A DNA stretch of 64,000 nt from a virus. Lineage: Duplodnaviria; Caudoviricetes. Below the pieces are notes generated by a model. That model was not told where the DNA came from and did not search any database. It saw only the letters and a list, made by a program, of their open reading frames with translations. The position numbers and the translations under genes are program-made. Location: positions 225 through 64,224 of IMG/VR virus record IMGVR_UViG_3300020577_010882; one strand, written 5' to 3'. This document shows, piece after piece, positions 21,389 through 41,725 of this stretch (the first letter of the stretch is position 1; each line of letters begins with the position of its first letter).

Positions 21389-21437
21389 GAAGAGATTGTC
21401 CGTCAACGTGGCATTGCCCGGGCGATCTGATGCGATA

Positions 21438-23799: not shown

Positions 23800-24194
23800 A
23801 CTGCAATCTTCTGGATCTGTTCGCCGCCGCCCGCGTCTCACGCATGCTCGAAGAGCGTGCTCGCGCCGAGAGGTTGCGCGATGCCCGCAGTAGAGCAGGT
23901 AAGGCGAGCGCCGCTGCTCGACGTGCCAAGTACGGAGAGAACGGCGTGGCCGCGCACATGCGCTCCATCGCAAGGTCGGGCGGCATCGAGCGGCAGAAGA
24001 CCATCACGCAAGCCGAGAGGTTGCGCGGGCTGTCCGCAGGGGGTCGAGCGTCGTGGGCGAAGCTCACGCCGGAGCAGGCACGCGAGAAGCGGCGGCGCGC
24101 TGGCGAGGCGGCAAAGCTCGTGATCTCCCACGAACAGCGTGTGGAGAACGGCAAGAAGGGGGCCGCGAAGCGATGGCCGCGAAGCGCAGTGTAG
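23787..24194 (+). CDS. basic low-complexity protein with KGG-like repeats
   Basis: AGKASAAAR, SAGGRASW, NGKKGAAKRW. Confidence 0.55.
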   Translation: MDFLNCNLLDLFAAARVSRMLEERARAERLRDARSRAGKASAAARRAKYGENGVAAHMRSIARSGGIERQKTITQAERLRGLSAGGRASWAKLTPEQAREKRRRAGEAAKLVISHEQRVENGKKGAAKRWPRSAV

Positions 24195-24634
24195 GGTTCA
24201 TCCGCAGGCGCGGCATGGCGCTGACGCACGAGACGCAGCACTGCATCTGGCTCATGCAGTGGGCTGAACTCAACCAGCGTCGCATCCCCGTGTTGCGCCA
24301 TCTCTTCCACATCCCGAACGAAGGTAAGCGATCACCAGCGGCCGGCGCGATCCTGAAGGCGATGGGCTTGAAGCCCGGGGTGTGGGACTACTTCCTGCCT
24401 GTGCCGCGCCACCTGAACAGCACGTGGTACGCAGGCATGTGGCTGGAGATGAAGTCGCCGACGAAGAGCCTCACGAAAGAGCAGCGCGAGTTCGGCGCGT
24501 CGATGTCCGACATTGGATACAGGACCGAGGTCTGCTTCTCGTGGTATCAGGCGGCAGCCGCGGTGATGAAGTACCTAGAAAAAGAAGAAGGTCAGGCGCT
24601 ATGGCCCACCATCCCGAAGACCGTGTCACCCTGA
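24173..24634 (+). CDS. VRR-NUC nuclease
   Basis: LFHIPNEGKR...G.KPGV.D...WLEMK...EQ.EF...GY...V. Confidence 0.88.
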   Translation: MAAKRSVGFIRRRGMALTHETQHCIWLMQWAELNQRRIPVLRHLFHIPNEGKRSPAAGAILKAMGLKPGVWDYFLPVPRHLNSTWYAGMWLEMKSPTKSLTKEQREFGASMSDIGYRTEVCFSWYQAAAAVMKYLEKEEGQALWPTIPKTVSP

Positions 24635-25209
24635 TCGAGCGCGTGTCCGTTGCGCTTGCGGACGGAAACCTGCGGCAGAGTCCCGGGCCATGCGCGCTCG
24701 ACACCGTGATGGCCCTCGGCGTGGTCGGCATCAGCGAGCGCATGTCCGACGCCGTGCTGCGCCTGAAGGGGGCGAACGACCACTCAGCCTACGGCGATGC
24801 GGTCGATGGCGTGTACGGGATCGCGCGATCTCTGGACCGGCGCGAGAACTGGCGGCTGAAGCGCTGGCGCCTGCGCCTCATGGCGTCGAGCGTGATCGAC
24901 TTCTGGCTCAACGAGTTGTGCAGAACGTGCCACGGCGTGAAGTTCGAGGTCGCCGGCAGCACCGGGAGGCTGTCGAGCCACGTGTGCAAGGCGTGCCACG
25001 GAACGGGCCGGCGCCGTGCGCCGTGGGACCGCAAGATCCCTGCGAAGCCTGAAGGCAGGCGTGCCCGTGGCGGCAGGGTAGAGCGGTGGAAGAAGGTGGC
25101 CGAGAGGCTGCGTACGTCAGCCGAGCGCCACCGCCGCCTCCTGATCGAACTGGAGGCGACGGAGGCTCGGGTCGAGGTTGAGATGCGACGCCGGCTGACC
25201 GGCGGCTAG
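24601..25209 (+). CDS. Q-like late antiterminator
   Basis: CRTCHG...CKACHGTG Zn finger; last gene of the PR operon. Confidence 0.65.
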   Translation: MAHHPEDRVTLIERVSVALADGNLRQSPGPCALDTVMALGVVGISERMSDAVLRLKGANDHSAYGDAVDGVYGIARSLDRRENWRLKRWRLRLMASSVIDFWLNELCRTCHGVKFEVAGSTGRLSSHVCKACHGTGRRRAPWDRKIPAKPEGRRARGGRVERWKKVAERLRTSAERHRRLLIELEATEARVEVEMRRRLTGG

Positions 25210-25451
25210 AGGCGCGACTTCATCCACTCCAGCAGCGCGCGGATCTCCGTCTCGGTGGAGCGCGAGAGGATGCCGCAGAGCACGCCGGACGGGCCGGGGT
25301 GCATGTAGCCGGTGCGCTCGGCGTGCTCCTGCACGGCGGCTTGCAGATTGCCCGGCTCGACGCCGGGCTGCTCTGCCAGCACCTCGCGCAGCAGCCACTC
25401 GTGGGTGTGAAGCAGGGGAATGGGCGGTTGGGGGATTTCGAGTTCGGTCAT
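25206..25451 (-). CDS. hypothetical protein
   Basis: Last gene of the inverted operon; ATGA-coupled. Confidence 0.65.
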   Translation of the reverse strand: MTELEIPQPPIPLLHTHEWLLREVLAEQPGVEPGNLQAAVQEHAERTGYMHPGPSGVLCGILSRSTETEIRALLEWMKSRL

Positions 25452-25822
25452 TGGCTCTCCAGTTCTTCGATGAGCACGCAGCGCGCTGCGTACCCTATGT
25501 TCCTCACGTCGTACTCCGCCCTCAACATGTCGCCCGTGTAGTCGGGCTTCGACTCGACGTACGTCTTCACGATCACGTCGAGCGTGGCGATCTCGTGGCT
25601 CGACATCGGCCGGCGGTTGCGCTTTCTGAAGTCCTTCGCCGCCTCACGGATCACGTGCATCGTCGTTTCGCTGAAGTGCACCCACGGCTTACCCACGTGC
25701 AGGCGCATCGCCATGTACCGCTCGACGATGCAGTTCACGCGGCCCGACAGGGAGTCGGGCGACCCCTCAAGCGCCTCGCGAATCGGCAGGCCGATGTAGA
25801 TCGGCTTCTTCCCGTCCTTCAT
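25448..25822 (-). CDS. possible ribbon-helix-helix protein
   Basis: PIYIG...SLSGRVNCIVERY. Confidence 0.55.
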   Translation of the reverse strand: MKDGKKPIYIGLPIREALEGSPDSLSGRVNCIVERYMAMRLHVGKPWVHFSETTMHVIREAAKDFRKRNRRPMSSHEIATLDVIVKTYVESKPDYTGDMLRAEYDVRNIGYAARCVLIEELESQ

Positions 25823-25848
25823 GGCCGCCAATGGTATCGCAGTCGAGA

Positions 25849-26256
25849 TCACTTGCGCGGCTCCAGCGCCCATGCCAGCGCAGCGTTCGTCGGCTCGGAC
25901 CTGATGTCGGCGTTCTCGAAGTCGATGGCGTCGAGCGTGTAGCGCTTGCGCTTGTCCGCCGAGTCGTACGACCACACATCCACCGTCTTCAGGCGTGGGT
26001 GCGTCGAGATCACCTCGATGGGTTTGCCGAACATCGGCTTGAACGCGCCGCTCGATCCGTACTTCTCCTTGTGGATGTAGATCATCTGCCCGGGTCGCAG
26101 GCCCACGCACCGCTCTGTGAACGCTGCGGCCGAGCGCTTCTCCCGAGCCGCCTTGTTGATGAACGAGAGCCGAGCCTCCGCCGTGTTGATGACGCGGTTG
26201 AGCGCCTTCTCGTCACGCATGCGGGAGACGCGCTCGATGAGTTGGTCGTTGGTCAC
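25849..26256 (-). CDS. hypothetical protein
   Basis: GTGA-coupled. Confidence 0.65.
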   Translation of the reverse strand: MTNDQLIERVSRMRDEKALNRVINTAEARLSFINKAAREKRSAAAFTERCVGLRPGQMIYIHKEKYGSSGAFKPMFGKPIEVISTHPRLKTVDVWSYDSADKRKRYTLDAIDFENADIRSEPTNAALAWALEPRK

Positions 26257-26942
26257 GTCGGATCCTTCTTCTCGATGAGCTTCACCTCCGGCATCGCCTT
26301 GAGCGCGGCGATGCCGGCTTTCTGCACGACGCTGGTGAGCATGGCCTCGATCTCCGCCTTCGCGCTGCTCGTCGTGTCGTCCATGTGGCGCTGGAACTGT
26401 TCGCCGACGAAGCCGAGGTTGGGGCCGAGGTCTTGCAGCGCCCGCTCGATCATGCCGGCGATCTCCTTCCTCTTGCCGGCCGGGATCTTCGAGTCTTCGC
26501 TGACCGACTTCATCAGTTCGCCGAGCCGGGTGACGACGCCTTCGAGCTTCGACTTGATCTCGGACTCGAACTCCTCGCGCTTCGTCTCCTCGACGAGGAT
26601 GTCCGGCCGTTGCTCGCCCTGCACATGCTTGATCGTGCAGCACGTGCCGCTGCCGTAGTTGAGCGTCGAGATGAATGACGCCCATTGCGCCCCCGACAGT
26701 TCGACCTCGATCAAACTTTTCCCGTCGTGGTGCCAGTCGAGGTTGAGGTTGCGAACGCGGTGGCTCTCCGTGATCGCGATGCGGATCGTGCTGCGATGCA
26801 CGAGTTCGCTGCCGTACAGGCGCTCGCCACCGCCGCCGATGGTCACTCGGTTGGCGGAGATTTGCCCGTACGCCGGGTGCGTCTCGGTGTAGTCGGCGTG
26901 CAGGCCGTTGCCCTTGACGCGGGTGGGTTTGATGGCGCCCAC
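26253..26942 (-). CDS. conserved phage hypothetical protein
   Basis: HPAYGQISANRV...LYGSE...EVELS.AQWASFIST.N.GSG..CTI. Confidence 0.8.
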   Translation of the reverse strand: MGAIKPTRVKGNGLHADYTETHPAYGQISANRVTIGGGGERLYGSELVHRSTIRIAITESHRVRNLNLDWHHDGKSLIEVELSGAQWASFISTLNYGSGTCCTIKHVQGEQRPDILVEETKREEFESEIKSKLEGVVTRLGELMKSVSEDSKIPAGKRKEIAGMIERALQDLGPNLGFVGEQFQRHMDDTTSSAKAEIEAMLTSVVQKAGIAALKAMPEVKLIEKKDPT

Positions 26943-26943
26943 G

Positions 26944-27495
26944 TCACACCCCCTTCCCGGTGAACAGCGAACGCAGCCACGCCGACTCGTCCTTGACGGC
27001 GCAGATGCTCAAGCGCTCGCCGCTCGCCTTCTCGACGGGGAAGCCGTTGAAGTCGCCGGCATCCACGTTCGGCGAGCGCTCGAAGTCGAGCCACATCACG
27101 CCGTCGTCGGTGCTGTCCGGGTACGTGCCCGAGTTGTCGGCGACGGCGATTCGGCCGTTCGTGCGGTCGATGTAGAAGCGGTGGCCGTCCGCGAACTTCT
27201 TCAGCAGGATGAAGCGGTCCTTGCCGGCCATGTATCCGGCGCGGCGGCGCTGGTCGTGGTGCGCCCTCTTCAGGAGGTCGATGCACACCGCGCGCCGGAT
27301 GTACTCGTCGATGTTGCCGGGTCCGTACGGGCCGCCGGACCACGACGAGTTGCAGCTTGCGATCTCACCGATGAAGTATTCGATGCGGCGCTCTTCGCTC
27401 ATGCCGGCGACCGCTTCGTTCACCGCCTTCGTGTACGCGGTGACGGTATCGCAGAACAGGTCGCTGATATTCTTGCACTCTTCACGCAGGTTCAT
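26944..27495 (-). CDS. hypothetical protein
   Basis: AAGGAGA SD. Confidence 0.7.
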   Translation of the reverse strand: MNLREECKNISDLFCDTVTAYTKAVNEAVAGMSEERRIEYFIGEIASCNSSWSGGPYGPGNIDEYIRRAVCIDLLKRAHHDQRRRAGYMAGKDRFILLKKFADGHRFYIDRTNGRIAVADNSGTYPDSTDDGVMWLDFERSPNVDAGDFNGFPVEKASGERLSICAVKDESAWLRSLFTGKGV

Positions 27496-27505
27496 GTCGT
27501 TCTCC

Positions 27506-27778
27506 TTAAAGATCCATCATTGCGGCGGCGACGAGCCAGTCCACCGCCTCGTCTCGCGACACGTCCAAGAGGTCGAATCCAACGGCGAGACGCAGCCGCG
27601 CGGCGGCGCTCCTGTATTGGCGTTCGATTTCCGGCATGCTGGTCGTGAGGAGCAGGTTCCTCTTCGCGACGCCCTGCCACAGCGCGTTGAGCACATGCTG
27701 GCCGAGCACGTGCTTGTTGCTGAAGGTGCGCTCCGCCTCCTCCGCTCCTGCCAGCAGATTCTTCTGGATGATGTTCAT
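27506..27778 (-). CDS. hypothetical protein
   Basis: AAGGAGA SD. Confidence 0.7.
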   Translation of the reverse strand: MNIIQKNLLAGAEEAERTFSNKHVLGQHVLNALWQGVAKRNLLLTTSMPEIERQYRSAAARLRLAVGFDLLDVSRDEAVDWLVAAAMMDL

Positions 27779-27788
27779 GTGGTTCTCC

Positions 27789-29162
27789 TTACTCGTTGAA
27801 GTCGAGGTACACCATCTCGCCGAACGGCGGGAGGTAGTTCTCGGGCACGCGCTTCGTGGTGCTCGCCCACAGCACGGGGTAGGGCGGGATGTCGTTGTGC
27901 TCGTGCGTGCCGTACATGTCCGTCACGACGATCACGCAGGCCGGCTCGATGCCGCACTCCTTCAGCCACTCGAAGCAGGGCACGAAGCTCGTGCCGCCGC
28001 CGCCCGTGGGCTTGTAGTCCAGCACGTCGTACGGCTCGAACTCCTGCACGCCCTGAATCGCGGCGTCGAAGTACACGACGTGCGTGCGCTCCGGCTTCAC
28101 CTCTTCGATGATCGAGGAGACCTCGCCCATCACGACGCCCTGATCGTGCGGGGACATCATCGAGCCGGAGGTGTCCCAAAAGATCACGATGGGAGGCAGG
28201 TGCTCGCTGCGCAGCGCCGGCAGGTACATGCCGAGCGGCATGTAGCGCATCGACGGACGGCTCATGCTGTAGTCGGCACGCGCCACCTGCTGCGCGAACC
28301 GACGCATCACCGCCTTCCAATCGACGCGCGCCTCGACAGCGTCCTCGACGAGGATCGCGATCTCGGCGGGCAGGCTGCCGTGACCCTTGGCGTGCTCGGC
28401 CGCCTGCACGATGGCGCTCTTCCAGTCCATCTTGTCGGCGCTCGCGGTCTCCGCCGGGGCGTCCATCACGTCGCCCTTGGGCTTCACCTCGGGCAGGGCG
28501 CCGGATACCCCTGACTGCTGTTGCTCGCCCTTGCCGCCTTGCTGGCCGGGTTGCTGGCCTGCGCTCGGCTGCTTGCCCGGCTGCTTGCCGGCGCCGCCTT
28601 GCTTGCCCGGCTGCTGGCCGTCCTTCGGGGCGCCGTCGCCGCCTTGCTGGCCGCCGTCCTGCTCGTCCTCGTCTTCGCTGTCGCCCTGCTGCTGGCGCTT
28701 CTCCTCGTTGCGACGCTCGGCCTCGGCGAGGAGCACGTCGTAGATGCGCTCCGCGTTCCACCCGGTCCAGTCCGGGTTGATGAGCGCGTTCGGCACGTCG
28801 AAGCCGTTGCGCACGAGCACTTGGTCGATGGCGTAGTCGCAGGCGAGGTTCCAGATGTACGGATGCCGGCTACCCCTGCGCCACGGGTGCTCGGCGACGA
28901 CGTGCCACACCTCGTGAGCGATCAGCGCGATCAACTGCTTGTCGGTGAGCGCGGCGATGTACGACGGGTTGTAGTACAGGTGCACGGCGTCGGTGCCGGC
29001 GGAGATGACGGACGCCTTCTCCACCACCTTCAGGCGACCGCCGAGCAGTCCCCAAAACGGCAGCGACATGAGCATCGCCATGCGAGAGCGGGAGATGCGC
29101 AACCGCTCGTCGCCCTTGGGGCTGGCGAACTTGAACGGCTCCTGCTTGGGTAGTGCAAGCAT
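27789..29162 (-). CDS. DUF2201-type metallopeptidase + VWA domain protein
   Basis: AGTD...YNP...AHEVWHV..H..R...WN.A.D..I; Q/G linker; DTSGSM MIDAS, GGGGT, V.TD. Confidence 0.9.
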   Translation of the reverse strand: MLALPKQEPFKFASPKGDERLRISRSRMAMLMSLPFWGLLGGRLKVVEKASVISAGTDAVHLYYNPSYIAALTDKQLIALIAHEVWHVVAEHPWRRGSRHPYIWNLACDYAIDQVLVRNGFDVPNALINPDWTGWNAERIYDVLLAEAERRNEEKRQQQGDSEDEDEQDGGQQGGDGAPKDGQQPGKQGGAGKQPGKQPSAGQQPGQQGGKGEQQQSGVSGALPEVKPKGDVMDAPAETASADKMDWKSAIVQAAEHAKGHGSLPAEIAILVEDAVEARVDWKAVMRRFAQQVARADYSMSRPSMRYMPLGMYLPALRSEHLPPIVIFWDTSGSMMSPHDQGVVMGEVSSIIEEVKPERTHVVYFDAAIQGVQEFEPYDVLDYKPTGGGGTSFVPCFEWLKECGIEPACVIVVTDMYGTHEHNDIPPYPVLWASTTKRVPENYLPPFGEMVYLDFNE

Positions 29163-29202
29163 TGCGTTTCCTTTCGTGGCCCGGCTGATCGCGGGCCTTC
29201 GA

Positions 29203-29538
29203 TTACTTGCGGGTGCGGGTGAGTTCGGCGACGCGTCGCTTCGCCACCTCGATCAGGGTGTCGTACGTGCCGATGAACCCATCTTCGGTGCCGATGGCCT
29301 CGCTGTAGGGCAGGCGCATGGCCTGCGCTGCGGTGAGGTCTTCGACGACGATGGGCGTCTCGCCAAGCATCTGCGTGCCCGCCTGACTGAACATCGAGAG
29401 CGCCTTGTCGAGGGTGTCGAGATCGCTCTCGCCCACGACGTACACCGCGCGCCGCTTGGAGATTCTGCTGCCCATCAGCGCGCTCGACAGGGTGGAGTCC
29501 TTCCCCACCCTGTCGATGACGAGGATGCCGTACTTCAC
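29203..29538 (-). CDS. hypothetical protein
   Basis: GTGA-coupled. Confidence 0.65.
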   Translation of the reverse strand: MKYGILVIDRVGKDSTLSSALMGSRISKRRAVYVVGESDLDTLDKALSMFSQAGTQMLGETPIVVEDLTAAQAMRLPYSEAIGTEDGFIGTYDTLIEVAKRRVAELTRTRK

Positions 29539-30398
29539 GGCTGCCTCTTGTACATGCCGGCCATCATCTTCGCGATCTTGTCGGCACGCTTCGCCTGCTC
29601 GGCACGCACGTCGGCGTCGTCGCGCAAGGTCTGCGGCGACACCTTAGTGAGCGACTCGCGCACCTCCTGCGTCATGCGGATGAGGTCCGGGTCGTCGGTC
29701 ATGTTGAGCTTGGGCAGGATCGAGACGATGTCGATCACGTTGCCCACGAGCGAGTCGTGGAAGCGGCGGTTCGGATCCTTCAGTGCCGCCGCCATCTTGA
29801 CCACCGAGTCGTGCAGGCGCTCCCACAGATCGCGCATCGCATCGGCGGTCGCCTGCTCGACGCTCTGCGTGATCTGCCTGCGGATGCGGTCCACCTCGCG
29901 CTCGCTCATCTCGACGCGGAAGTCGTTCGCGCTCGGCACCGGGAAGTACACGACCTCGATGCCGTACTTCGCGCGCAGTTCGCCGGGCGCCGGGTAATCC
30001 TCCTCGTTGTACAGCCCGTTGAGCGCCTTCTTTGCGGCGGCCTTCAGGTCGTCGTACTCGTCGAGGAAGGTCTCGACCGCGTCGTCGAACTTGCGGCGAT
30101 ACTTCAGCACCTCGGAGTTGAAGTCGAGGTACATCGCCGCCGGCAGGATGCGAGCGCCCGTCTGCGTCCACGGCAGCGAGTGCTCGTAGATCCACGTGCG
30201 GACCTCGTTGGCGATCTTCGAGATCCGCACGAACGAGTCGGCCTTCACGTCGATGAGGCACTTGTTGTAGCGCCCCATGTCCTTCTCGTTGTGGTGCTCC
30301 TTCGCGACCGTGGCGGTGGCGGTGGCGTCGTAGCGGCGCGCGCTCCACGTGCGGATCGACGGGGAGGCGAGCATCGCTTGCGTGCTGATGGTCGTCAT
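29535..30398 (-). CDS. DUF3150-like protein
   Basis: W.ARRYD...SLPW...GARILP...F..EYD...YP...K.......PVP...DFR; sits between ATPase and VWA genes. Confidence 0.75.
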   Translation of the reverse strand: MTTISTQAMLASPSIRTWSARRYDATATATVAKEHHNEKDMGRYNKCLIDVKADSFVRISKIANEVRTWIYEHSLPWTQTGARILPAAMYLDFNSEVLKYRRKFDDAVETFLDEYDDLKAAAKKALNGLYNEEDYPAPGELRAKYGIEVVYFPVPSANDFRVEMSEREVDRIRRQITQSVEQATADAMRDLWERLHDSVVKMAAALKDPNRRFHDSLVGNVIDIVSILPKLNMTDDPDLIRMTQEVRESLTKVSPQTLRDDADVRAEQAKRADKIAKMMAGMYKRQP

Positions 30399-30400
30399 GT

Positions 30401-31455
30401 TCAGGCTGCCTTCTTCATGGTGTCGGAGAGGTTCGCCGCCTGCACCACCAGATCCCCGAGGGGGTGGGACGCGAGCTTGGCGAACGCCGGGTGCTTCATC
30501 AGCGTGCGGCCGATCTTGCGGTACACGTCCGAGACCATGATCGCGGACAGGTCCGTGGAGTCGGCGTTGTCGTACATGCGGATGCCGTACTTCACGACGG
30601 CGGCGAACTCCTTCTCGGTGGCGTAGTGCGCGACCGAGGTGCACACGGCGTACACGAGGTCGAGCTTCGTCGGGATCGGCGTGCCCATCGGGTCGTTGAA
30701 GATTTCCTCCGGCGTCGGGCAGTCCTCGACCATCTTCAGGTAGCCGCTGCGCCTTCGCCGACCGCGCCCATCATGGCGACCATGCGCATGTCGTCGGGGA
30801 GGTTCATGCCGAGGATCTTGTTCACCGCGTTCCACGTGCGGGGGCACGGCTGGTTCACGATGTCGGCGGACGCCTCGAACTTGTGCAGCGCCGCCGCTTG
30901 CACGTCACGCAGGTACGCCACGAGACGCGGATCGACTCCCTTCCTCTGCGCCCACAGCGACCACGACTTCGCGTCGGTCGTGAGTTCGACGATGCTGTCG
31001 AAGCGCGACTTCACCGGCTCCAGCAAGCCCTGCACGTTGGCGCGGTGCTTGCGGTCGTTCGTCGCCGCGAAGAACACCACGTTCGGGTTGCCGCGGTAGC
31101 GGTCGAGCATCTGCATGACGCCGGCCTGCGTGGCGGGGAGCGCCTGACCGAGGTCGTCGATGAAGACGAGCGTGAGCGAGGTGGCTTCCTCGATCTCGCG
31201 CAGTTGACCGAAGGGCAGGAACTCGGCGCGCGGGCCGTGCTCGGTCTGCACCACCCACGGGGCGCCCTTGTAGTCGGTCGGCTCGCCCACGGAGGGGTGC
31301 ATGATGACGAGCTTGGCGCCGGCCGGAGCGGCGATGTCGTTCTCGATGATCTCGGTCTTGCCGATGCCGGGGGCGCCCTTCACGAGCAGGCGGGAGTGGG
31401 AAGCGAGGAAGGCGGTGCCGAGGACGGCGAGTTGCTGCGGATTGACGGTGGACAT
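30401..31455 (-). pseudogene. MoxR/AAA_5-like ATPase split by a frameshift near 30745
   Basis: GAPGIGKT, LVFIDDL, ATN, SRF in 30736..31455; C-terminal half SGYLKMVEDCPTPEEI... continues in another frame to 30401. Confidence 0.8.
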
Positions 31456-31542
31456 GGTTCCCTTTCGTGGCCCGGCGATGCGGGCCTTCGATGCGCGGCG
31501 AAGCCGTCGCCGCTGCGGTTTGTGCTGCGATACCTCTGACTG

Positions 31543-31773
31543 CTATTGCTGGACCGGCATCTCGTCGAGCACGCTCCACCCGAGCGCAGCGAACACTCGC
31601 TCGGTCGCGTGGTCGGGCATGGCCCTGCGCAGCGCGATCTTCTTCGCGTGGTGGATCTCGTAGATCGCCATCGAGCGCGGCACGATCCAGCAGCCGCCCG
31701 GCGAGATGATGCTCACGAAGAACTCCAGCCACTCCTTCGCTTCGGCCATGCCTTCGGGGGTGTCGATGTTCAT
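31543..31773 (-). CDS. hypothetical protein
   Basis: ATGA-coupled. Confidence 0.65.
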   Translation of the reverse strand: MNIDTPEGMAEAKEWLEFFVSIISPGGCWIVPRSMAIYEIHHAKKIALRRAMPDHATERVFAALGWSVLDEMPVQQ

Positions 31774-32432
31774 GCCGTCACCACGTCGCGCTCGTTCCAG
31801 TAGCGGCGCTCGGCCTGCTCACGCAGGTACGACTTGTGCGCGCCCTCGGCCATCTCCTTTCCGCACTCGACGGCGTACTCCATGCCGATGTATCCGCCGC
31901 ACGAGTCGAGCACCTCGCCCTTGTCGTCCAGCACCTCGACGAAGTAGCACTCGCCGTTGCGCCAGCGCCCGAACTCCTCGACGATGGCGGAGAGCGTGAC
32001 CTTCATCACGTTCGCCAGCTTCGGCGTCATGCGCTTGCGGCCTTGCCATTCGAGCGCGTCCTTCGGCGTGATGTACACGTACCCGGAGCGACCGCTGTCC
32101 CACTGGCAGTGGAAGGGATGCGTGCGCATCGCCATGCCGGAGTGCATGTACGTGTAGACCGGCAGGCCGATCAGCGGATCGAGCAGTTCCTCCTTGCGCA
32201 TCGCGCGGTCGAGGTTGATGCTCTTGTCGCTGAACGCCTCGATGCGCTGGCCGATCTCCTCGTCTCCGTCGCTGTCGAGCGGCTCGTTGCCGAGAGTGTG
32301 GCGGCTGCCCTTGCGGTAGCTGATCTTCACGGGGCCGGCGCCGTCGAGCGGCGAGTCTGTGTGCTCGTCGTGCGAGAGGCGGATCTTGTAGGTGCGACCG
32401 TCGTGGGTGACGGTCTCGCTGTGCGGTTCCAT
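31770..32432 (-). CDS. conserved phage/ICE hypothetical protein
   Basis: LPVY.Y.HSG......F.CQWDSG..GYVY...DSCGGY.G. Confidence 0.8.
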   Translation of the reverse strand: MEPHSETVTHDGRTYKIRLSHDEHTDSPLDGAGPVKISYRKGSRHTLGNEPLDSDGDEEIGQRIEAFSDKSINLDRAMRKEELLDPLIGLPVYTYMHSGMAMRTHPFHCQWDSGRSGYVYITPKDALEWQGRKRMTPKLANVMKVTLSAIVEEFGRWRNGECYFVEVLDDKGEVLDSCGGYIGMEYAVECGKEMAEGAHKSYLREQAERRYWNERDVVTA

Positions 32433-32434
32433 GT

Positions 32435-32716
32435 TCAGACTCCCTTCTTGCAGGGTTCGTCGAGCGCGGGGTTGACCTCGTGGTTGAGGCCGGTGAACGC
32501 GGTGGCGTTGCAGGTCACGCACCACGCAACGTGGTAGTAGACGACGCCGTTCTTGCGCAGGCTTCTCGCGTTGACGCGGGGTCGCGCCTCGAACATGCCG
32601 AGGCGGTGCCCGAGTTCCTCTGCGATGCGCCTGACCGTTTTCTTCGTCTTCGCCCGGCGGCCCGCCGCCTTCGGCAGGCCGCCGAGCGCGTTGGCGAGCA
32701 GCCGGTGATCGGCCAT
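32435..32716 (-). CDS. hypothetical protein
   Basis: Basic ORF with CxxC. Confidence 0.55.
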   Translation of the reverse strand: MADHRLLANALGGLPKAAGRRAKTKKTVRRIAEELGHRLGMFEARPRVNARSLRKNGVVYYHVAWCVTCNATAFTGLNHEVNPALDEPCKKGV

Positions 32717-32718
32717 CG

Positions 32719-33360
32719 CTACGCCGCCATCTGCATGAGGCCGCGGTCGAGCGTGGCGAGGCGCACGGCCTCGGCCTCCTCGGCGTTCGTGGGGAAGAGC
32801 ACGAGGTCGCCGAAGAGCGCGGCGAGTCGGTTGCCCATGAGCACGTACTGGCTTGCGAGGTGCAGGTGGGCGCGCTTCGTGTGCTCGGCGCGGCACCGGG
32901 ACGCGTCGTCGAGCGCGATCTTCACGACCGTCTCGTACTCGGCGTAGATTTCCTGCCGCACGCCGAGCATGTTGTCGAGCGTGAGGCCGCCGAGGCTCTT
33001 GATGATCTTGCCCGGCACCTCGAAGACCGCGTGATCCCCGTGCATCTGGTGGATCATGCCGCGCACGTCGCGCTTCTGGCCCTCGGTGGTCGGCGTGCTC
33101 TTCGTGGTGTTCACGAGGATGTAGAGCACCTCGTTCACGTGGAAGATGCGGGCCAGCGGGTAGTGCACGCCGTAGCTGTAGAGCGTGGCGCCGTCGAAGT
33201 ACATGCGGTAGCTGCCGGTATCCTTCGACTTGCCGCCGCCGTAGCCCTCCTTCTGCGTTTGCAGGAGCCACGCCCTGATGCACTCGTTGTAGTGGCGGAA
33301 GACGGTGGTGACGCCGCGCTGGCGGCTGCCCGGGAGTTGGAAGCGGTAGATCGGACCCAT
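32719..33360 (-). CDS. hypothetical protein
   Basis: Preceded by the hairpin-SD motif; LYSYG.HYPLA. Confidence 0.8.
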   Translation of the reverse strand: MGPIYRFQLPGSRQRGVTTVFRHYNECIRAWLLQTQKEGYGGGKSKDTGSYRMYFDGATLYSYGVHYPLARIFHVNEVLYILVNTTKSTPTTEGQKRDVRGMIHQMHGDHAVFEVPGKIIKSLGGLTLDNMLGVRQEIYAEYETVVKIALDDASRCRAEHTKRAHLHLASQYVLMGNRLAALFGDLVLFPTNAEEAEAVRLATLDRGLMQMAA

Positions 33361-33439
33361 GAGGTTTCCTTTCGTGGCTCGGCGTGAAGCGGGCCTTCGA
33401 TGTGCCGCAGACCGTGCGGCGCGGGTGAATCAGGTGCGG

Positions 33440-33766
33440 TCAGGGGTGCCCGTCGCGCACCATCGCGCCGAGCGCAGCCTCGCGGTCGCGCTGCTCGTCG
33501 CTGCGCAATCCGTCTTCGCGTCCCTCGGCCTTCGCGACCGCATCGCGCGCTGCGTGGATGCTCGGAAGGTGCATGACGCCCGGCCGGGCGCCGAGGTCGC
33601 CGAGGAGTTCCTTGAGCGCGGCGAGCATTTCCGGCGCGGCCTCGAAGAGCTTGCCGTAGTGACTCCTCTCGGCGGACTTGATGTGCTGGTTGAAGGTGGC
33701 GATCCGGGTGCGGTACTTGTCCGAACCGTTGATGCCGAAGCCGTCGTAGCTGATTTCGCTCATCAC
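33440..33766 (-). CDS. phage hypothetical protein (AAPEMLAAL motif)
   Basis: Common phage motif L..AAPE.L.AL. Confidence 0.7.
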   Translation of the reverse strand: MMSEISYDGFGINGSDKYRTRIATFNQHIKSAERSHYGKLFEAAPEMLAALKELLGDLGARPGVMHLPSIHAARDAVAKAEGREDGLRSDEQRDREAALGAMVRDGHP

Positions 33767-33828
33767 AGCGCCCCGGACGCGAGGAGCTTGCGCAGGCGCC
33801 GCTCGGCGGCGCGGGTGAGTCGCTTCAT
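33763..33828 (-). CDS. 21-aa basic micro-ORF
   Basis: AGGAGA SD; stop overlaps the next start. Confidence 0.5.
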   Translation of the reverse strand: MKRLTRAAERRLRKLLASGAL

Positions 33829-33838
33829 GGTGGGTCTC

Positions 33839-34039
33839 CTAGAGGATCGGCAGGTTGTGCAGGTTGAGGACGGCGGCGATGTTCTCCACACGCTCGTTTC
33901 CGCAGCACTCGCGTTTCGCCTCGTCGTGGTGGACGAACGTGCGCGCCTTCGCGAGGTCGCTGGTGTACGAGCGCTTGCTGCCGGGCGGGGCGGCGTACAT
34001 GCCGTCCGAGGTGCGGCGGATCACGAAGACGGTGTGCAT
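33839..34039 (-). CDS. hypothetical protein
   Basis: GAGG SD; FVIRR..DG.Y...YTSDL.KARTF. Confidence 0.65.
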   Translation of the reverse strand: MHTVFVIRRTSDGMYAAPPGSKRSYTSDLAKARTFVHHDEAKRECCGNERVENIAAVLNLHNLPIL

Positions 34040-34047
34040 GGCGGCCT

Positions 34048-34206
34048 CTACGCCGGCACCATCGCGGCGCGGCGCATGAGGCGTGCAGTCTCGGCGGTGC
34101 GCTTCTTCTTCCACTGCTCGACGCGCTTCAGGGCATCGGCGTCGGGCAGGCGGATGTGCTTCGCGAAGAGGTCGGCGAGGTGGGCGCGGCGTTGGGCACG
34201 GTTCAT
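34048..34206 (-). CDS. hypothetical protein (MNRAQRR)
   Basis: AGGAGA SD. Confidence 0.65.
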   Translation of the reverse strand: MNRAQRRAHLADLFAKHIRLPDADALKRVEQWKKKRTAETARLMRRAAMVPA

Positions 34207-34226
34207 GGTGGTCTCCTGTCGTGGGT

Positions 34227-34269
34227 GTGGCACCTGCAAGCGCTCGCTCGGAACGCTTGCAGGTGCCAC
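34227..34269. repeat. perfect 16-bp inverted repeat with 11-nt loop
   Basis: GTGGCACCTGCAAGCG / CGCTTGCAGGTGCCAC. Confidence 0.95.
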
Positions 34270-34490
34270 CCTTGCGGGTGGCGTGAGCCAGAGAACCCCT
34301 CAGAACTAGCTCGTTCAATCGTTCGGGGTGTTGGCTCCCTCGGCGGTGAATCGCGTCAGGGTGACGCTATGGATATCGAGACACGGCTCGGTCTCCTCTG
34401 TCATTGGTGGCGCGAGCTATCCCTAGCCCGCAGGAACGGTACGCGTCATGCGTGGTGGGGCACGTGCGCGGTGCATCGTTCTCCTCGCGG

Positions 34491-34820
34491 TCAGAACGGG
34501 ATGTCGTCGTCCTCGCACGCAGCCGGCTTCGTGCTCACGCACTCGGCCGGGAGGCGCGGGAGGATGTACGTCTCGGATTCGTGGTCGCCGTCGTCCATCG
34601 CGTCGGCCTTCGCTTCCGCGCCTTCGCGGGAGTCGCACGTGGCGAGCACGACGTGGCGCGTGCCGATCAGGCCATCGGTGAAGCGGCAGTGCGCGGGCAT
34701 GCGGCAGAGCACGACGAACTTGCCTTCGGCGACCGCGCGTTCCGCGGCGTCGAGCGCGTCGGCGTTCTCGCCGATGAGGCCGATCTGCGAACCCTGAGCG
34801 ACTTGCTGGAACTCGTTCAT
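34491..34820 (-). CDS. acidic protein with SSB-like C-terminal DDDIPF
   Basis: AAAGGA SD; ends ACEDDDIPF; no OB-fold motifs recognised. Confidence 0.75.
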   Translation of the reverse strand: MNEFQQVAQGSQIGLIGENADALDAAERAVAEGKFVVLCRMPAHCRFTDGLIGTRHVVLATCDSREGAEAKADAMDDGDHESETYILPRLPAECVSTKPAACEDDDIPF

Positions 34821-34839
34821 GGAATTCCTTTCGTGGTGG

Positions 34840-35653
34840 CGTGGCGCACGGGAGGGCCGGGCACGGAATTGAGCAGGCGTCGCTTGCGCGGCCCCGTTAG
34901 TCCAATCTCACCGTGTTTGTCCCGACCCTCTCGTGCGCCCCCTCGTACGGGAGGGGAGCGCACTTCGTACACGCTGTAGGCCCGCAAGTGTTTGGCCGTG
35001 GCGTTGGTTCACCGCTTTTCCCTTCAGTTGCGCGATGCTGGTGAGGCACCGCCGATGCTCTCGTGCGCTTCTAAGCGTGGATGTGCGGCGGCCTTGCGCG
35101 GCCGGCACGAGGAGGATGACGACACGTGAACCGTTCCTTCGGGGTTAGGTCGCCCCGTGCGCCATGACGTGCGGCATGCAAGCCGCGCGCTTTAGGCGCT
35201 ACGTGTCGTTGCAGGGTGCATCCCGAGAGTGCTCGGGTCCGGCGAGACTTTCTGTTCCGGGCGGGCGCTTCAGCGTTCACGGCTATGCCGTTCGTCGTGG
35301 CCCCCACTCCGCCGTTCGTACCTCGTCGCTGGTGCAGTCGTGGTGGGTGGTGCTCTCCAGCATCCTCGGGTCACGCAGGGGCAGCCTTGCGCTGCGTCCG
35401 TGCCCTCGTCCCGTCCGTCGCGCCCCCGTCAAACTGATCTTTCGCGGGAAACGCGCCTCGCAGGCGGTGCGTCAGGAGAGTCCTTTCCTGCCCCGCTGCG
35501 CCGTCCAACTGGCGAGCAGACTCGGATGGTCTCGTCCGGTGTTCGGGCACAGGTCTCATCGGCTTTCGCCTGATCGGCCTTCCGGCCATGTTGCCTGTTG
35601 AGCGCTTTCGCGGTCCCTACCACCCCGTTCGGCCCGTTGCTGCAACCGAACAG
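34840..35653 (-). ncRNA. candidate large structured RNA / leader (~810 nt)
   Basis: No credible ORF; many helices and at least five GNRA-capped hairpins, all on the transcribed strand. Confidence 0.55.
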
Positions 35654-35659
35654 GACTCC

Positions 35660-35689
35660 ATTATCGCACAAGCGATGAGCGTTTGTCAA
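35660..35689 (-). promoter_or_regulatory. leftward sigma70 promoter with operator
   Basis: TTGACA-N18-GATAAT; ATCGC-ACAA-GCGAT at 35663-35676. Confidence 0.8.
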
Positions 35690-35774
35690 GCGGTTATGGA
35701 AAGTGAGGAGGGGGTAGGGGGGAGGAGCGCGGGCGCACGCTCGTGCACGTGACCCACGCGTCGCTCGCGAGCGC

Positions 35775-35815
35775 ATCGCATGGGCGATTGACAGACCCCG
35801 GGGGACCGATATACT
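35775..35815 (+). promoter_or_regulatory. rightward (late) promoter with operator overlapping -35
   Basis: ATCGC-ATGG-GCGAT 35775-35788; TTGACA-N16-TATACT 35788-35815. Confidence 0.8.
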
Positions 35816-36055
35816 CGCGGTCCAAGAAGAACAACAAGCACAAGATGCAGTGGGGTAGGGGGAGCTTTGCCCTAGCCCTAGTAGCACCGAATGCGTTCCC
35901 ACGCCGCGCCGCTGTCGTTGCCGTCTGCTCGGGCGGCGCCGTTTCCCTGCGGTCTCCAGACGACAGCGGAATCCCTCGCGGCGGGGGAACGCGACTATCA
36001 CCACCCCGCCAGCGCGCAGCGGCGGGCCGACGCCTCGTAAGTGGCGTCTCTCATT
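35816..36055 (+). ncRNA. structured late leader
   Basis: 10-bp helix 35909-35918/35960-35969 enclosing two hairpins, plus three flanking hairpins. Confidence 0.45.
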
Positions 36056-36130
36056 GCGGGCGTGGTCGAGCGGTCAGGCGTCAGCCTTCCAAGCTGTTCC
36101 ACGCAGGTTCGATTCCTGTCGCCCGCTCCA
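36056..36130 (+). tRNA. tRNA-Gly(TCC)
   Basis: GCGGGCG/CGCCCGC-T-CCA acceptor; CT-TCC-AA loop; GGTTCGATTCC T-arm. Confidence 0.9.
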
Positions 36131-36226
36131 GCGCCAACGAGCGTCATCCGGTAGACGGCGCGTGCGCCACTCCGGCGCGGCCCGCTCGCCAACGTAGGCC
36201 GTGAATCATTCAGCGCGAGGACCGAA

Positions 36227-36472
36227 ATGACGAAGCGCGTGCGGATCGAGAACGCCGACAACTCCAACTTCGGCGTGCTCGTCGAGGTGTGGGACAAGGG
36301 GCAGAACGGCGAGCCGGATCGGATCGCCTTCACGCGCGATCTGCGCAACCCGACCGAGATGACCGGCGACGAGATGTTCATCACGAGCACGCGCTACATC
36401 GTGATCCGCGAACTGCCGCCGATGCCGCCCGCGCCGAGCGCGCCGGCTCCGCTCTCGCCGACGCCGCAGTGA
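36227..36472 (+). CDS. hypothetical protein
   Basis: GAGG SD; MTKRVRIENAD. Confidence 0.7.
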   Translation: MTKRVRIENADNSNFGVLVEVWDKGQNGEPDRIAFTRDLRNPTEMTGDEMFITSTRYIVIRELPPMPPAPSAPAPLSPTPQ

Positions 36473-38631: not shown

Positions 38632-39213
38632 ATGCCCGCACTGAAGAATTCAACCTACGAGCGCATGGCGCAACTGATGGCCGGCGGCAAGTCGGCCGCA
38701 GCGGCGTATGGCGAGCTTCACCCGAAGACGAAGTACCCGGAGAGGAACGTCGGGCGCTACCTGAAGATGCACCCGGAGATCGAGGTGCGGGTGAAGGAGA
38801 TCGTCGAGCACAAGGTGGACACGAACGCGGTCGTCGTCACGAAGGCGATGGAGCAGGCGGCCGTGGACAAGGCGTACATCATCGGGAACCTGAAGGAGGT
38901 CGTCGAGCGCTGCATGCAGTCCAAGCCCGTCTTCGACGCGATGGGTAAGCAGGTGTACGTCGAGACGAAGGACGGGCGCGTGGCGGCGGAGTACGGCTTC
39001 GACCCGCGCGCCGCGACGCGTGCCCTGCACCTCATGGGGCTGGAGGTCGGGATGTTCACGCAGCGGGTGAAGTTCGTTCGAGGCCCGCTCGATGGCCTGC
39101 CGGCGCCGGTTCTCCAGATGATGCAGCAAGCCCTCGACTCGATGGTGAACGGACGAGTGATCGAGCATGAGCCTTCCGCAGCATCTCCAGTGGCTCCAAG
39201 CACTCCCGCCTGA
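38632..39213 (+). CDS. terS: terminase small subunit
   Basis: N-terminal HTH; position directly before TerL. Confidence 0.75.
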   Translation: MPALKNSTYERMAQLMAGGKSAAAAYGELHPKTKYPERNVGRYLKMHPEIEVRVKEIVEHKVDTNAVVVTKAMEQAAVDKAYIIGNLKEVVERCMQSKPVFDAMGKQVYVETKDGRVAAEYGFDPRAATRALHLMGLEVGMFTQRVKFVRGPLDGLPAPVLQMMQQALDSMVNGRVIEHEPSAASPVAPSTPA

Positions 39214-41725
39214 CGCTCGCGTCAAACTGCTTCGGGAGGTCGAGCGCGCGCTAGGCGAGCGCAAGCTGGAGACCTACAAGCCTTACTCGAAGCAGCGCGA
39301 GTTCCACGAGGCGGGCGCCACGTACCGCGAGCGCATGCTCGCTGCCGGCAACCGATTGGGGAAGGCGCTTCAGGACGACACGCCGGTACTCACTCCGGGC
39401 GGATGGGTGCGGATAGCTGATCTTGGGCCGGGCGATCTGGTGGTCGCTGGCGATGGCTCGATCACGCGCGTTTCCGCCGTGTACCCGCAGGGAGTGGTGC
39501 CGCTGTACCGCGCTACGTTCGATTGCGGAGAGGAGATTCTCTGCTGCGGGGACCACTTGTGGGTGGTGCAGTGGCCGAATGATCGCTTCCCGAAGCGATG
39601 GTCGCGCGGTCGCGCGGAGAGCAATCCGAACTTCGGGCGATGGTCGGTGTCGAGTGCGGCGCAGATTGTGGATCGCGTCGGCGAGCGGCCCAAGCCGAGG
39701 CGGCGCGTCACCATCCCGGCCGCGCCCGTGGTGCGTTTCGAGGGTGGAGAGGTGCCCGTTGATCCGTGGCTTCTCGGGTTCCTGATCGGGGATGGGTGCT
39801 TCCGAGGTGGTTCCGTGGCGTTCGCGACGCTGGACGCGGAGATTGTGGACCGGGTGCGCGGAATCGTTCGTGGCGCGTACGAGGTGCGGCACCACGGAGG
39901 CTGCAACTACAGCATCTCGCTTCCCGGCGGCAGGGGGCACGGGAAGGGCGGAAGAGGGGCCGGCAACGCGCTGATCGCGGCGATTCGCAGGCTTGGTCTG
40001 TGGGGCAAGGCTTCATGCGAGAAGCGGGTGCCGAGCGAGTACCTGCTGAATTCACCGGGCGTGCGGCTTGCGATGCTGCAAGGGCTGATGGATTCGGATG
40101 GCAGCGCGGGCGCTACTTCGGAGTTCTCGTCGTCGTCCGAGGGGTTGGCGAACGACGTGGCGTTTCTCGTCCGCAGCCTTGGCGGAAAGTGTCGAGTTTC
40201 GAGCCGCGTCACGAGCTTCACGTACAAGGGTGAGAGGAAGCGCGGTGGGCGCAGTTTCCGTGTGCGGCTAAGTCTTCCGGGCGCGTTCTGGTTGCCGAGG
40301 AAATCGGCGGCTGTTCGTGAGCGCCGCGTGACGGCCGACCGCATCTTGGTCTCGCTGACGCCTGCCGGTGCCGGTAGCGCAACGTGCATTTCGGTGGATC
40401 ACCCGTCCCGCACGTTCGTCACGAAGGACTTCATCGTGACGCACAACACGTGGAGCGCCGGCGCCGAGGCGGCGATGCACCTCACGGGGCGCTACCCGGA
40501 TTGGTGGCGCGGCAAGCGCTTCCACAGGGGGCAGCAGGCCGCGTGCGCGAGCGAGACGGGCCTGCTCACGCGGGACGGCTTGCAGCGCATCCTCTTCGGC
40601 TACCCGGCGTTCACGCTCGGGACCGGGATGGTGCCGAAGGACGCGATCAAGGAGACGGTGCCTTCGGCGCACGGCCCGAAGGGGTTGTTCGAGCACGTTC
40701 GTATCGCGCATGGCGGTGGCGGCGACGTGCAGGCCGACGAATCGGTGCTGTACCTGCGCTCGTACGATCAGGGTCGCGAGCGCATTCAGGCGATGGAGCT
40801 TGGCTGGTTCTGGATGGACGAGGAGCCGGATGAGGGCTACTACCTCGAAGCGATGACCCGGACGAACATCACCCTCGGCCCGGTGATGCTGACGTACACG
40901 CCGCTGAAGGGCATGTCCACGGTCACGAAGCGGTTCTTCATGGACAAGGTGCCCGGCACGCACCTCGTGCAGATGGGGATAGAGGACGCCGAGCACATTC
41001 CGGCGGACGTGAGGGCAGCGATCATCGCGTCCTACCCGGCGCACGAGAGGGAGGCCCGGGTGCACGGCGTGCCGGTGCTCGGATCTGGCCGGGTGTTCAC
41101 GGTGCCGGAGGAGCAGTTCGTGATCGACCCGATCCCGCTCTCGCCGCTGTGGCCGAGGATCGTGGGCATCGACTTCGGGTTCGATCACCCGACCGCCGCG
41201 GTGTGGATGGCGTGGGATCGCGACACGGACACGGTGTACGTGTACGACTGCTATAGGTCGCGCGAAGCGCTCGTGCCGGTGCACGCCGCGGTGCTCAGGT
41301 CGAAGGGCGAGTGGATCCCGGTCGCGTGGCCGGCGGACGGCGAGAGCGAGACGGCCGCAGGCCCCGCGCTCGCCAAGCAGTACAGGGCGCAGGGCATCAA
41401 CTTCCTGCCGGAGAGCGCGAAGTTCCCCGAGTACCCGGGCACGAGCACCGAGAACACGCAGAAGAGCCGGCGCAGCGTCGAAGGCGGCGTGGCGGTGATT
41501 CAGGACCGCGCCATCGAGTCGAAGCTGAAGGTCTTCCGCACGCTCTCGCCGTGGCTGGAGGAGTACCGCCTGTACCACCGCAAGGACGGCGTGATCGTGA
41601 AGAAGGATGACGACCTGATCTCGGCGACGCGGTACGCGCTGATGTGCCTCTTGCAGGCCGCGCTGCCGCCGAGCGCGTCGATGAGGTTGAACCCGCATCG
41701 CAGGACGAACTGGAGAGCAGGATGA
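39167..41725 (+). CDS. terL: terminase large subunit containing an intein
   Basis: AGNRLGK..T Walker A, WMDEEP Walker B, GIDFG nuclease motif, DDLISATRY. Confidence 0.95.
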   Translation: MSLPQHLQWLQALPPDARVKLLREVERALGERKLETYKPYSKQREFHEAGATYRERMLAAGNRLGKALQDDTPVLTPGGWVRIADLGPGDLVVAGDGSITRVSAVYPQGVVPLYRATFDCGEEILCCGDHLWVVQWPNDRFPKRWSRGRAESNPNFGRWSVSSAAQIVDRVGERPKPRRRVTIPAAPVVRFEGGEVPVDPWLLGFLIGDGCFRGGSVAFATLDAEIVDRVRGIVRGAYEVRHHGGCNYSISLPGGRGHGKGGRGAGNALIAAIRRLGLWGKASCEKRVPSEYLLNSPGVRLAMLQGLMDSDGSAGATSEFSSSSEGLANDVAFLVRSLGGKCRVSSRVTSFTYKGERKRGGRSFRVRLSLPGAFWLPRKSAAVRERRVTADRILVSLTPAGAGSATCISVDHPSRTFVTKDFIVTHNTWSAGAEAAMHLTGRYPDWWRGKRFHRGQQAACASETGLLTRDGLQRILFGYPAFTLGTGMVPKDAIKETVPSAHGPKGLFEHVRIAHGGGGDVQADESVLYLRSYDQGRERIQAMELGWFWMDEEPDEGYYLEAMTRTNITLGPVMLTYTPLKGMSTVTKRFFMDKVPGTHLVQMGIEDAEHIPADVRAAIIASYPAHEREARVHGVPVLGSGRVFTVPEEQFVIDPIPLSPLWPRIVGIDFGFDHPTAAVWMAWDRDTDTVYVYDCYRSREALVPVHAAVLRSKGEWIPVAWPADGESETAAGPALAKQYRAQGINFLPESAKFPEYPGTSTENTQKSRRSVEGGVAVIQDRAIESKLKVFRTLSPWLEEYRLYHRKDGVIVKKDDDLISATRYALMCLLQAALPPSASMRLNPHRRTNWRAG
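39365..40447 (+). mobile_element. 361-aa class 3 intein with LAGLIDADG endonuclease, inserted at Walker A GK/T
   Basis: Ala1 (ALQDDTPV), block B HLW, block F TCISV, block G VTHN/T; LGFLIGDG and LQGLMDSDG; atypical codon use. Confidence 0.92.

Follow-up and report, generated by a model that had tools for sequence, protein, structure and literature searches.

The leader of the lambda N transcript carries nutL and an RNase III hairpin upstream of N, and the RNA of the put element binds RNA polymerase at the zinc-binding domain of beta' and, with no need for protein factors, suppresses both pausing and termination. In HK022 put is ~70 nt long, consists of two stem-loops and follows each of the two early promoters, PL and PR; acting in cis on RNA polymerase, it suppresses termination, whether intrinsic or Rho-dependent, over distances of at least 10 kb (PMC9378689). 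The antitermination RNA conAn2, found in conjugative plasmids of low-GC Gram-positive bacteria, measures a few hundred nucleotides and belongs to an intergenic region of 383 bp that heads a very long operon; it shows little sequence conservation from one element to another, its activity was demonstrated with a terminator read-through assay, and it requires the protein processivity factor ConAn1, encoded just upstream (PMC8191782). GOLLD and ROOL are often present in prophages, next to tRNA genes (PMC5737381). Here we describe a long non-coding region in a stretch of 64,000 nucleotides from a virus of the Caudoviricetes (hereafter the window; positions 225 to 64,224 of IMG/VR record IMGVR_UViG_3300020577_010882), which is one full copy of the 64,224-bp record with terminal repeats and has a GC content of 66%. 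This region is most likely the 5' leader of a transcript that runs from a leftward promoter, controlled by a CI-type repressor, into a 10-kb accessory operon. The initial annotation had proposed it as a candidate for a large ornate RNA of ~810 nt. As judged from the sequences compared below, it probably represents instead an undescribed, modular and only partly structured family of leader RNAs (779–831 nt).

The leader and the elements around it are arranged as follows:

34821..35653, minus strand: untranslated leader, ~831 nt (A 0.22, U 0.12, C 0.33, G 0.33)
35689..35660, minus strand: leftward sigma70 promoter, TTGACA-18-GATAAT with a TG extension
35663-35676: perfect operator palindrome, ATCGC-N4-GCGAT, overlapping the spacer and the -10 element of the leftward promoter
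35788..35815, plus strand: divergent rightward promoter, TTGACA-16-TATACT, near-consensus sigma70
~20717-21400, minus strand: LexA/CI-like repressor gene, read from the sequence, with low third-position GC
34821-36055: non-coding gap of 1235 bases between the operon and the lysis/structural genes
34491-34820, minus strand: first operon gene, an acidic 109-aa ORFan with an isoelectric point (pI) of 4.4 and the C-terminus DDDIPF
up to 34832, minus strand: ribosome-binding region of the first gene, GAAAGGAA, unpaired in the predicted fold

An operator-controlled TTGACA promoter had been predicted upstream of the leader, and the TTGACA-18-GATAAT promoter overlapping a perfect operator corresponds to this description. 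It scores 11 of 12, a level at which shuffled sequences would contain 0.1 sites, and it would start the leftward transcript near 35653. The genome carries the palindrome ATCGC-N4-GCGAT six times in perfect form, and four of these copies are found at promoters (20368, 21447, 35663 and 35775). The copy at 35775 adjoins the -35 element of the rightward promoter, and the two divergent promoters with their operators together span 35660-35815. The operon itself, in which genes were called by third-position GC, extends on the minus strand from 34820 to ~24400 (~10 kb). Neither another recognisable promoter nor an internal intrinsic terminator was found in 24000-34900; since no other promoter is recognisable across the operon, it is most likely driven by the leftward promoter.

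The leader does not code for protein. As had been noted at the outset, it contains no credible open reading frame (ORF): all ORFs in 34821-36055 have negative codon log-odds (-0.13 to -0.55), compared with at least +0.25 for confident genes of at least 100 aa and +0.17 to +0.45 for spot-checked genes, including that for CI. Second-position GC of the ORFs in the gap is ~0.56-0.70, and the gap as a whole is devoid of third-position GC periodicity. The translations are Arg-rich and of low complexity, with no match to Pfam or PHROGs at E below 0.09.

In order to compare the leader with related sequences, homologues of the neighbouring endolysin were used to reach the relatives L007 (a 49.8-kb contig), L009/L010 and L013, the last of which holds the 5' end only. 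Blastn searches with the region against phage and plasmid collections gave no match, protein-based locus searches of IMG/VR seeded with gene 1, the 251-aa gene and the DUF2201 gene returned nothing, and exact-word scans of the leader yielded only chance matches without flanking similarity. Three of the latter were dropped for this reason: a word match in IMG/VR (L004), one in GTDB (L005; a Planktophila metagenome-assembled genome of 48% GC) and a 25-nt match at a contig end in the JGI metagenomes (L006). In L007 and L009, the large terminase subunit (TerL) is 65–66% and the portal 63–64% identical to the window proteins, and the AAA ATPase of L007 is 53% identical. These syntenic relatives possess the same divergent promoter pair with operator (the leftward layout of L009 was established by eye), followed by gaps of 1.1–1.3 kb in which no genes were called. 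The leaders of the three phage lineages are 831, 808 and 779 nt long and have in common an A-rich, U-poor composition of the sense strand (A ~0.22, U ~0.12), whereas the first operon genes behind them are mutually unrelated, that of the window being acidic (pI 4.4) and the others basic (9.4 and 10.3). Endolysin homologues P0011, P0012, P0013, P0010, P0019 and P0017 come from loci with other, ordinary co-directional architectures, where the leader is missing. Because three syntenic lineages have it and the other endolysin relatives do not, the long leader is, on the sequences at hand, a conserved trait of one clade, evolutionarily more stable than the cargo behind it. So far the family is confined to this clade of temperate phages with P22-type portals, known from metagenomes only.

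Closer variants were available in two short contigs from two other studies, X3 and X8, in which the leader is 94–98% identical to that of the window and carries 20 substitutions. Pairing was kept for three of the four substitutions in high-confidence pairs of the minus-strand fold (via G.U) and for one of five on the plus strand, but this difference is not significant, nor is the enrichment of substitutions at unpaired positions (Fisher P 0.36). Two of the three indels fall in terminal loops, according to manual mapping onto the helices.

Conservation begins at the very start of the leader (35654-35552), where the first ~100 nt hold, in this order, a hairpin, the motif GGUGSUAGGRA, a GGAA-capped hairpin, a GAAA-capped hairpin and GAUGAGACC:

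35624..35654, minus strand: P1, hairpin beside the start site; 11 bp (8 bp in L007 and 6 bp in L009, sequences differ)
35614..35624, minus strand: M1, motif GGUGGUAGGGA, directly 3' of P1; GGUGCUAGGAA in L007
35575..35588, minus strand: P2, hairpin with a GGAA loop and the stem UGGCC/GGCCG; UCCGGC/GCCGGG in L009
35558..35574, minus strand: P3, hairpin with a GAAA loop and the core GGC/GCC; GCC/GGC in L007, CCGG/CCGG in L009 and L013
35552..35561, minus strand: M2, CGAUGAGACC, after P3; identical in L007, ACGAGAAAC in L009

MAFFT failed to align the 5' modules of the three lineages, which were therefore aligned by eye on these anchors; only P3 was counted by a tool. In P3, each of the three core pairs differs on both sides among the four sequences, and 87.5% of its cells are paired, as opposed to 0–37.5% in slid controls. 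P1 is predicted in the minimum free energy (MFE) structure of the 5' end in all three lineages despite its divergent sequences, and in P2 the variant of X3 (at 35588) converts the closing U.G to C-G. M1 has no second copy on the minus strand of the genome, and GNRA loops are present on the transcribed strand only. Several more specific ideas were discarded: a long-range pairing of M1 with the region just ahead of the ribosome-binding site is inconsistent across lineages, CsrA-type GGA motifs are not enriched, and the resemblance of the M1 segment GGGUGGUA to the T-box core is lost in L007 (UGCU).

The second conserved block, domain D (35111-34958), was obtained with RNAalifold from an alignment with L007 that was built on invariant loops:

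34958..35111, minus strand: domain D, ~155 nt, five helices
35111-05/35066-60, minus strand: helix Ha of domain D
35103-35087, minus strand: helix Hb, loop GCAAG
35051-33, minus strand: helix Hc, loop CUCACCA
35004-34971, minus strand: helix Hd, 11-nt loop AAACACUUGCG
34970-60, minus strand: helix He of domain D

All 34 pairs of the domain (100%) are formed in both the window and L007; 14 of them are changed on both sides and none is broken, while slid controls show 0–2 both-side changes and 31–48% pairing. Shuffling of alignment columns gave a z-score of -6.2 for the sense strand and of -4.3 to -4.4 for the antisense strand, and the five G.U cells are found on the sense strand only. At one pair of Hb, three different Watson-Crick pairs occur in three lineages: G35102-C35088 of the window is C-G in X8 owing to a double change (35088/35102) and U-A in L007. 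The loop AAACACUUGCG has an exact second copy in L007 on a different stem, and nucleotides 6053-6183 of that contig match part of domain D as a weak internal second copy (covariance model E-value 0.012), which suggests a duplication inside the L007 leader. In L009, a hairpin whose loop contains AACACAUUGC was recognised by eye. Taken alone, domain D is not unusually stable thermodynamically. Words from the conserved blocks (GGUGGUAGGGA, CAAACACUUGCGG and GCCUCACCAGC) can be used as probes for further homologues.

Together, the 5' module and domain D account for only ~260 of ~830 nt that are conserved in the relatives. The ~400-nt middle, including the multibranch domain with its 9-bp helix, aligns at random level and displays no conserved structure. 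This, together with a fold that is no better than that of shuffled sequences, is at variance with the single ~810-nt ornate RNA of the initial annotation. The whole leader has MFE z-scores of -1.64 (minus strand) and -1.59 (plus strand), and the fraction of well-defined positions lies within the shuffle range. Other particulars of the earlier description fared differently. The stem at 35222-37 and the repeat of the 11-mer CTCTCGTGCGC (34928 and 35058) were recovered. GNRA hairpins are indeed restricted to the transcribed strand (five on the minus strand and none on the plus strand, against 1.7 in dinucleotide shuffles, P ~0.03), although 3% of genome windows match this count. Those at 35603-12, 35575-88, 35561-70 and 34881-90 were found as described, whereas at 35454-66 the scan detected no GNRA tetraloop, the element being by eye a 4-bp stem with a 5-nt loop; the fifth hairpin is an additional one at 35147-56 (minus strand). 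The 9-bp helix 35119-27/35201-09 is present and encloses a multibranch domain, as proposed, but is not conserved in L007.

Only two local elements were more stable than their shuffles (200 shuffles): 35119-35209 (z -3.6) and 34843-34939 (z -3.2). These and two further predicted elements are listed below:

35119..35209, minus strand: multibranch domain closed by the 9-bp helix; locally stable, not conserved
35398..35552, minus strand: predicted domain closed by an 8-bp long-range helix, pair probability 0.91; specific to this phage
34843..34939, minus strand: terminal hairpin of 97 nt with 19-nt arms, an inverted repeat ending 22 nt ahead of the AUG
34963-34933, minus strand: predicted competing local hairpin

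For the multibranch domain, the alignment z-score is -0.7 to -1.9, and X8 has a 1-nt insertion inside the 9-bp helix. In the 35398..35552 domain, the change 35401 A>G of X3 and X8 retains the pair of the 8-bp helix as G.U, but comparison with L007 revealed no conserved structure. The terminal hairpin has a near-continuous base of ~18 bp. L007 possesses a 13-bp terminal hairpin with the same outer stem, GCGCACGA/UCGUGCGC (by eye), and the shared word GGCGCACGA; as far as can be read from the two sequences, the hairpin is conserved in kind. Its predicted shape makes it a likely candidate for an RNase III-type processing or stabilising site.

How does this leader relate to the described systems? 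A check against Rfam with cmscan, as recommended at the outset, returned only the tRNA for the window at the gathering score and for 34300-36300 at E up to 10; L007, L009 and L013 have no Rfam match. Known riboswitches, T-boxes and other cis-regulatory families (Rfam 15) were not matched either. The assignment to the GOLLD/ROOL class that had been considered earlier was rejected: there is no covariance-model match even at E up to 10 and no full-length conserved fold. The likeness lies in the size class (~580-800 nt), the phage context and, in this genome but not in L007, the tRNA neighbour (PMC5737381; 10.1101/2024.12.08.627333); here, however, the RNA would be an mRNA 5' leader and not a free-standing gene.

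A put-like antitermination leader, which the initial annotation had named as an alternative, would be the most plausible kind of function, although the element falls outside the put family itself. In both cases a nascent stem-loop RNA would emerge just downstream of a repressor-controlled early promoter, here ahead of a 10-kb operon. Compared by description rather than by sequence, the two differ in that the conserved 5' module of the leader is a ~100-nt arrangement of three hairpins and two single-stranded motifs, ~700 nt more leader follow it, with a second conserved domain, and it occurs after only one early promoter, being missing at those near 20368 and 21438, whereas put follows both. 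With conAn the leader has in common that a large RNA element heads a very long operon of a mobile element; in contrast, no conserved protein gene flanks it, its first genes are unrelated and the host is Gram-negative. The lambda N leader offers a parallel in layout, namely a leftward, CI-controlled leader with small GNRA-like hairpins at its 5' end and a long hairpin before the ribosome-binding site of the first gene. The present leader is nevertheless four times longer, its hairpins carry true tetraloops and not boxB pentaloops, and no N-like first gene is conserved among the three unrelated ones (pI 4.4, 9.4, 10.3), a comparison in which N proteins are too divergent to be excluded by sequence. 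A nut site of the lambda type was rejected, for no boxA (CGCUCUUA-like) is present within one mismatch in the leaders of the window and L007; the sole near-boxA of the L009 leader, CGCTCTTG (one mismatch), is at leader position 648, distant from the 5' module.

The leader thus appears to be built of a conserved 5' module, a variable middle of ~400 nt, a five-hairpin domain of ~155 nt and a long terminal hairpin before the ribosome-binding site. We tentatively favour, with somewhat less than even confidence, a role in cis, in which the leader keeps the operon transcript elongating and/or is itself processed, because the position of the 5' module parallels those of put and conAn2 and the terminal hairpin recalls the RNase III site of lambda N. 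The nascent 5' module, possibly with domain D, would influence in cis either the RNA polymerase that is transcribing it or Rho, and the 0.8-kb untranslated RNA and the long operon would thereby be transcribed to the end, as with the put and conAn RNAs. An RNase III-type cut at the ~18-bp base of the terminal hairpin might then separate the leader from the coding mRNA, or the hairpin might stabilise it.

Several observations weigh against this proposal. We infer from the promoter alone that the leader is transcribed as one molecule. The need for antitermination is likewise deduced, and from Rho only, because no intrinsic terminators are predicted inside the operon; since G makes up at least 26% at every point of the leader and the start of the gene, Rho might just act poorly on this RNA. 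Short leaders without the 5' module follow the other early promoters, near 20368 and 21438. When aligned by MAFFT, the 5' block has a z-score of -1.6 on the sense and -4.3 on the antisense strand. The covariance model of domain D (R1) finds the window and L007 but not L009, and all three lineages are linked only by the 5' module and an Hd-like loop. Finally, the covariation comes from 2–4 sequences, the same ones that gave the structure of domain D, and is below R-scape-grade statistics.

Among the alternatives, the one that fares best, albeit unlikely, is that the leader is released at the terminal hairpin as a stable, large trans-acting non-coding RNA, for instance a scaffold or sponge for an RNA-binding protein of host or phage that would recognise the fixed loops, resembling GOLLD and ROOL in role. 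It could account for the length being kept at 779–831 nt, the A-rich, U-poor composition in all lineages, the loops that stay fixed while stems covary, the duplication of the Hd hairpin in L007 and the long RNase III-like hairpin at the 3' end. Yet the conserved part is about one third of the length, with a middle that is not alignable, the stability and definition of the whole leader do not surpass those of shuffles, no Rfam family matches it, and the genome contains elsewhere no complement to the conserved loops.

More doubtful is a sensing attenuator, in which a ligand, a protein or temperature would make domain D and the GCGCACG repeats change partners, and Rho-dependent termination or the translation of the first gene would be controlled in this way. 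Three copies of the GCGCACG type (35163-57, 35068-58 and 34939-21) can all pair with a single complement (34861-34843), a local hairpin at 34963-34933 competes, and domain D, with its several hairpins, is of aptamer-like size. However, these alternative pairings are predicted from the window sequence only; the predicted folds leave the ribosome-binding site unpaired, no intrinsic terminator was found, and no known riboswitch or T-box model matches.

Slightly less probable still is that the conserved blocks act as DNA, be it as protein-binding sites or as hot spots for recombination between modules, or are a tolerated spacer left by gene decay, the RNA folds being incidental. Whereas inverted repeats are equally present in DNA, single-sequence thermodynamics are weak, domain D being not unusually stable, and the antisense alignment z-score is likewise negative (-4.3), compensatory changes preserve five separate hairpins without breaking a single pair, GNRA loops as well as G.U pairs are restricted to the transcribed strand, the blocks are conserved while adjacent genes are replaced outright, and neither a residual coding signal nor a protein-family match is seen. 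That an atypically composed protein-coding gene is hidden here, for instance in the 145-aa ORF of 35164-35601 (plus strand), is hardly credible: in spite of weak GC periodicity in one frame over 35010-35550 and of 3-nt and 6-nt indels of the relatives within it, this ORF has a codon log-odds of -0.28, GC1/2/3 (GC at the three codon positions) of 0.66/0.64/0.70, an Arg/Ser/Pro-rich, low-complexity translation without a match in Pfam or PHROGs and 12 substitutions distributed 4/4/4 over the codon positions (manual count), and neither L007 nor L009, whose gaps yielded no gene calls, retains it.

Further features of the genome are as follows:

11273-12391, minus strand: integrase
39167-41725: large terminase gene, 852 aa, with a LAGLIDADG domain inserted before Terminase_6N
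90-9656: 3188-aa ORF for a virion protein, closing the virion module
36056-36130, plus strand: tRNA-Gly(UCC), on the rightward transcript, 400 nt from the leader and on the opposite strand

The window also encodes an Erf-like annealing protein, an exonuclease, an O-like replication initiator, a GH19 endolysin and an Rz-like spanin; the lysis and structural genes occupy the plus strand from 36289. By its gene content the phage is temperate, and its host is Gram-negative since it encodes a spanin. The tRNA gene is specific to this phage, L007 having no tRNA. The terminases of L007 and L009 are 492–495 aa long and lack the LAGLIDADG insert, which in the window is probably an intein or a homing-endonuclease insertion. 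PHROG matches of the 3188-aa protein are limited to a domain of ~150 residues near residues 1530-1690, which is also found in large virion, DarB-like and endolysin-annotated proteins.

Within the accessory operon, the first gene and the 213-aa gene are ORFans with no homologue among 5.8 billion proteins; the DDDIPF end of the former is a motif of SSB C-terminal tips. No convincing match to a PADLOC defence family was obtained for the operon genes. Genes 1 and 2 are separated by a non-coding spacer of 285 nt (34207-34490), in which a 6-bp hairpin with a GCAA loop (34281-34266) is directly followed by a 19-bp near-perfect hairpin (34227-34269), both ahead of the ribosome-binding site GGAGA and of an ATG at 34206. 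A hairpin combined with the ribosome-binding region CCACGAAAGGRAA is situated directly upstream of three operon genes (29165-29203, 31456-31477 and 33363-33401), and a partial copy of this module lies ahead of gene 1 (34821-34832). The operon and both promoters are flanked by a 41-nt imperfect inverted repeat (24089-24129 / 35983-36023; 71% complementary), which could be a chance occurrence in GC-rich DNA or the trace of an inversion or insertion.

On the other side of the divergent promoters, the rightward transcripts of all three phages (window 35822-36055, L007 6504-6837, L009 1929-2081) start with a common A-rich word right after the promoter, AGAAGAAC, in the variant CAAGAAGAAC in the window and L009 and CAGAAGAAC in L007. 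GC-rich hairpins are located 3' of it, those of the window including 35909-18/35960-69, in which X3 has 11 substitutions, and 35893-908/35977-92. The rightward 5' region may be a second conserved leader, for the lysis/structural operon. The word GGGGTAGGGGG occurs twice, at 35711-35721 and 35852-35862, flanking the rightward promoter, the first copy being inside a G-run (35707-35727) between both promoters.

For structure hunting in GC-rich genomes the locus is a caution, given that its thermodynamically striking elements are not conserved and its conserved domain is invisible to single-sequence folding. With regard to phage biology, the leader and its repressor-controlled promoter remain together in phages that have exchanged the genes downstream; this points to a portable cassette for expressing accessory cargo, which might consist of genes for host takeover or anti-defence. 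RNA-based ways of keeping polymerase going on the long operons of mobile elements are few, namely put, conAn2 and the EAR-type leaders. That the leader represents a new class of RNA-only device, either a processive antiterminator composed of the 5' module and domain D or a large processed RNA with loops that capture host factors, is rather improbable; if true, it would be a means by which temperate phages switch on interchangeable cargo operons once the repressor is lost. Should the activity proposed here be true, the leader would constitute a new structured RNA family, and would provide a testable model of cargo expression and an annotation marker for this clade of phages.

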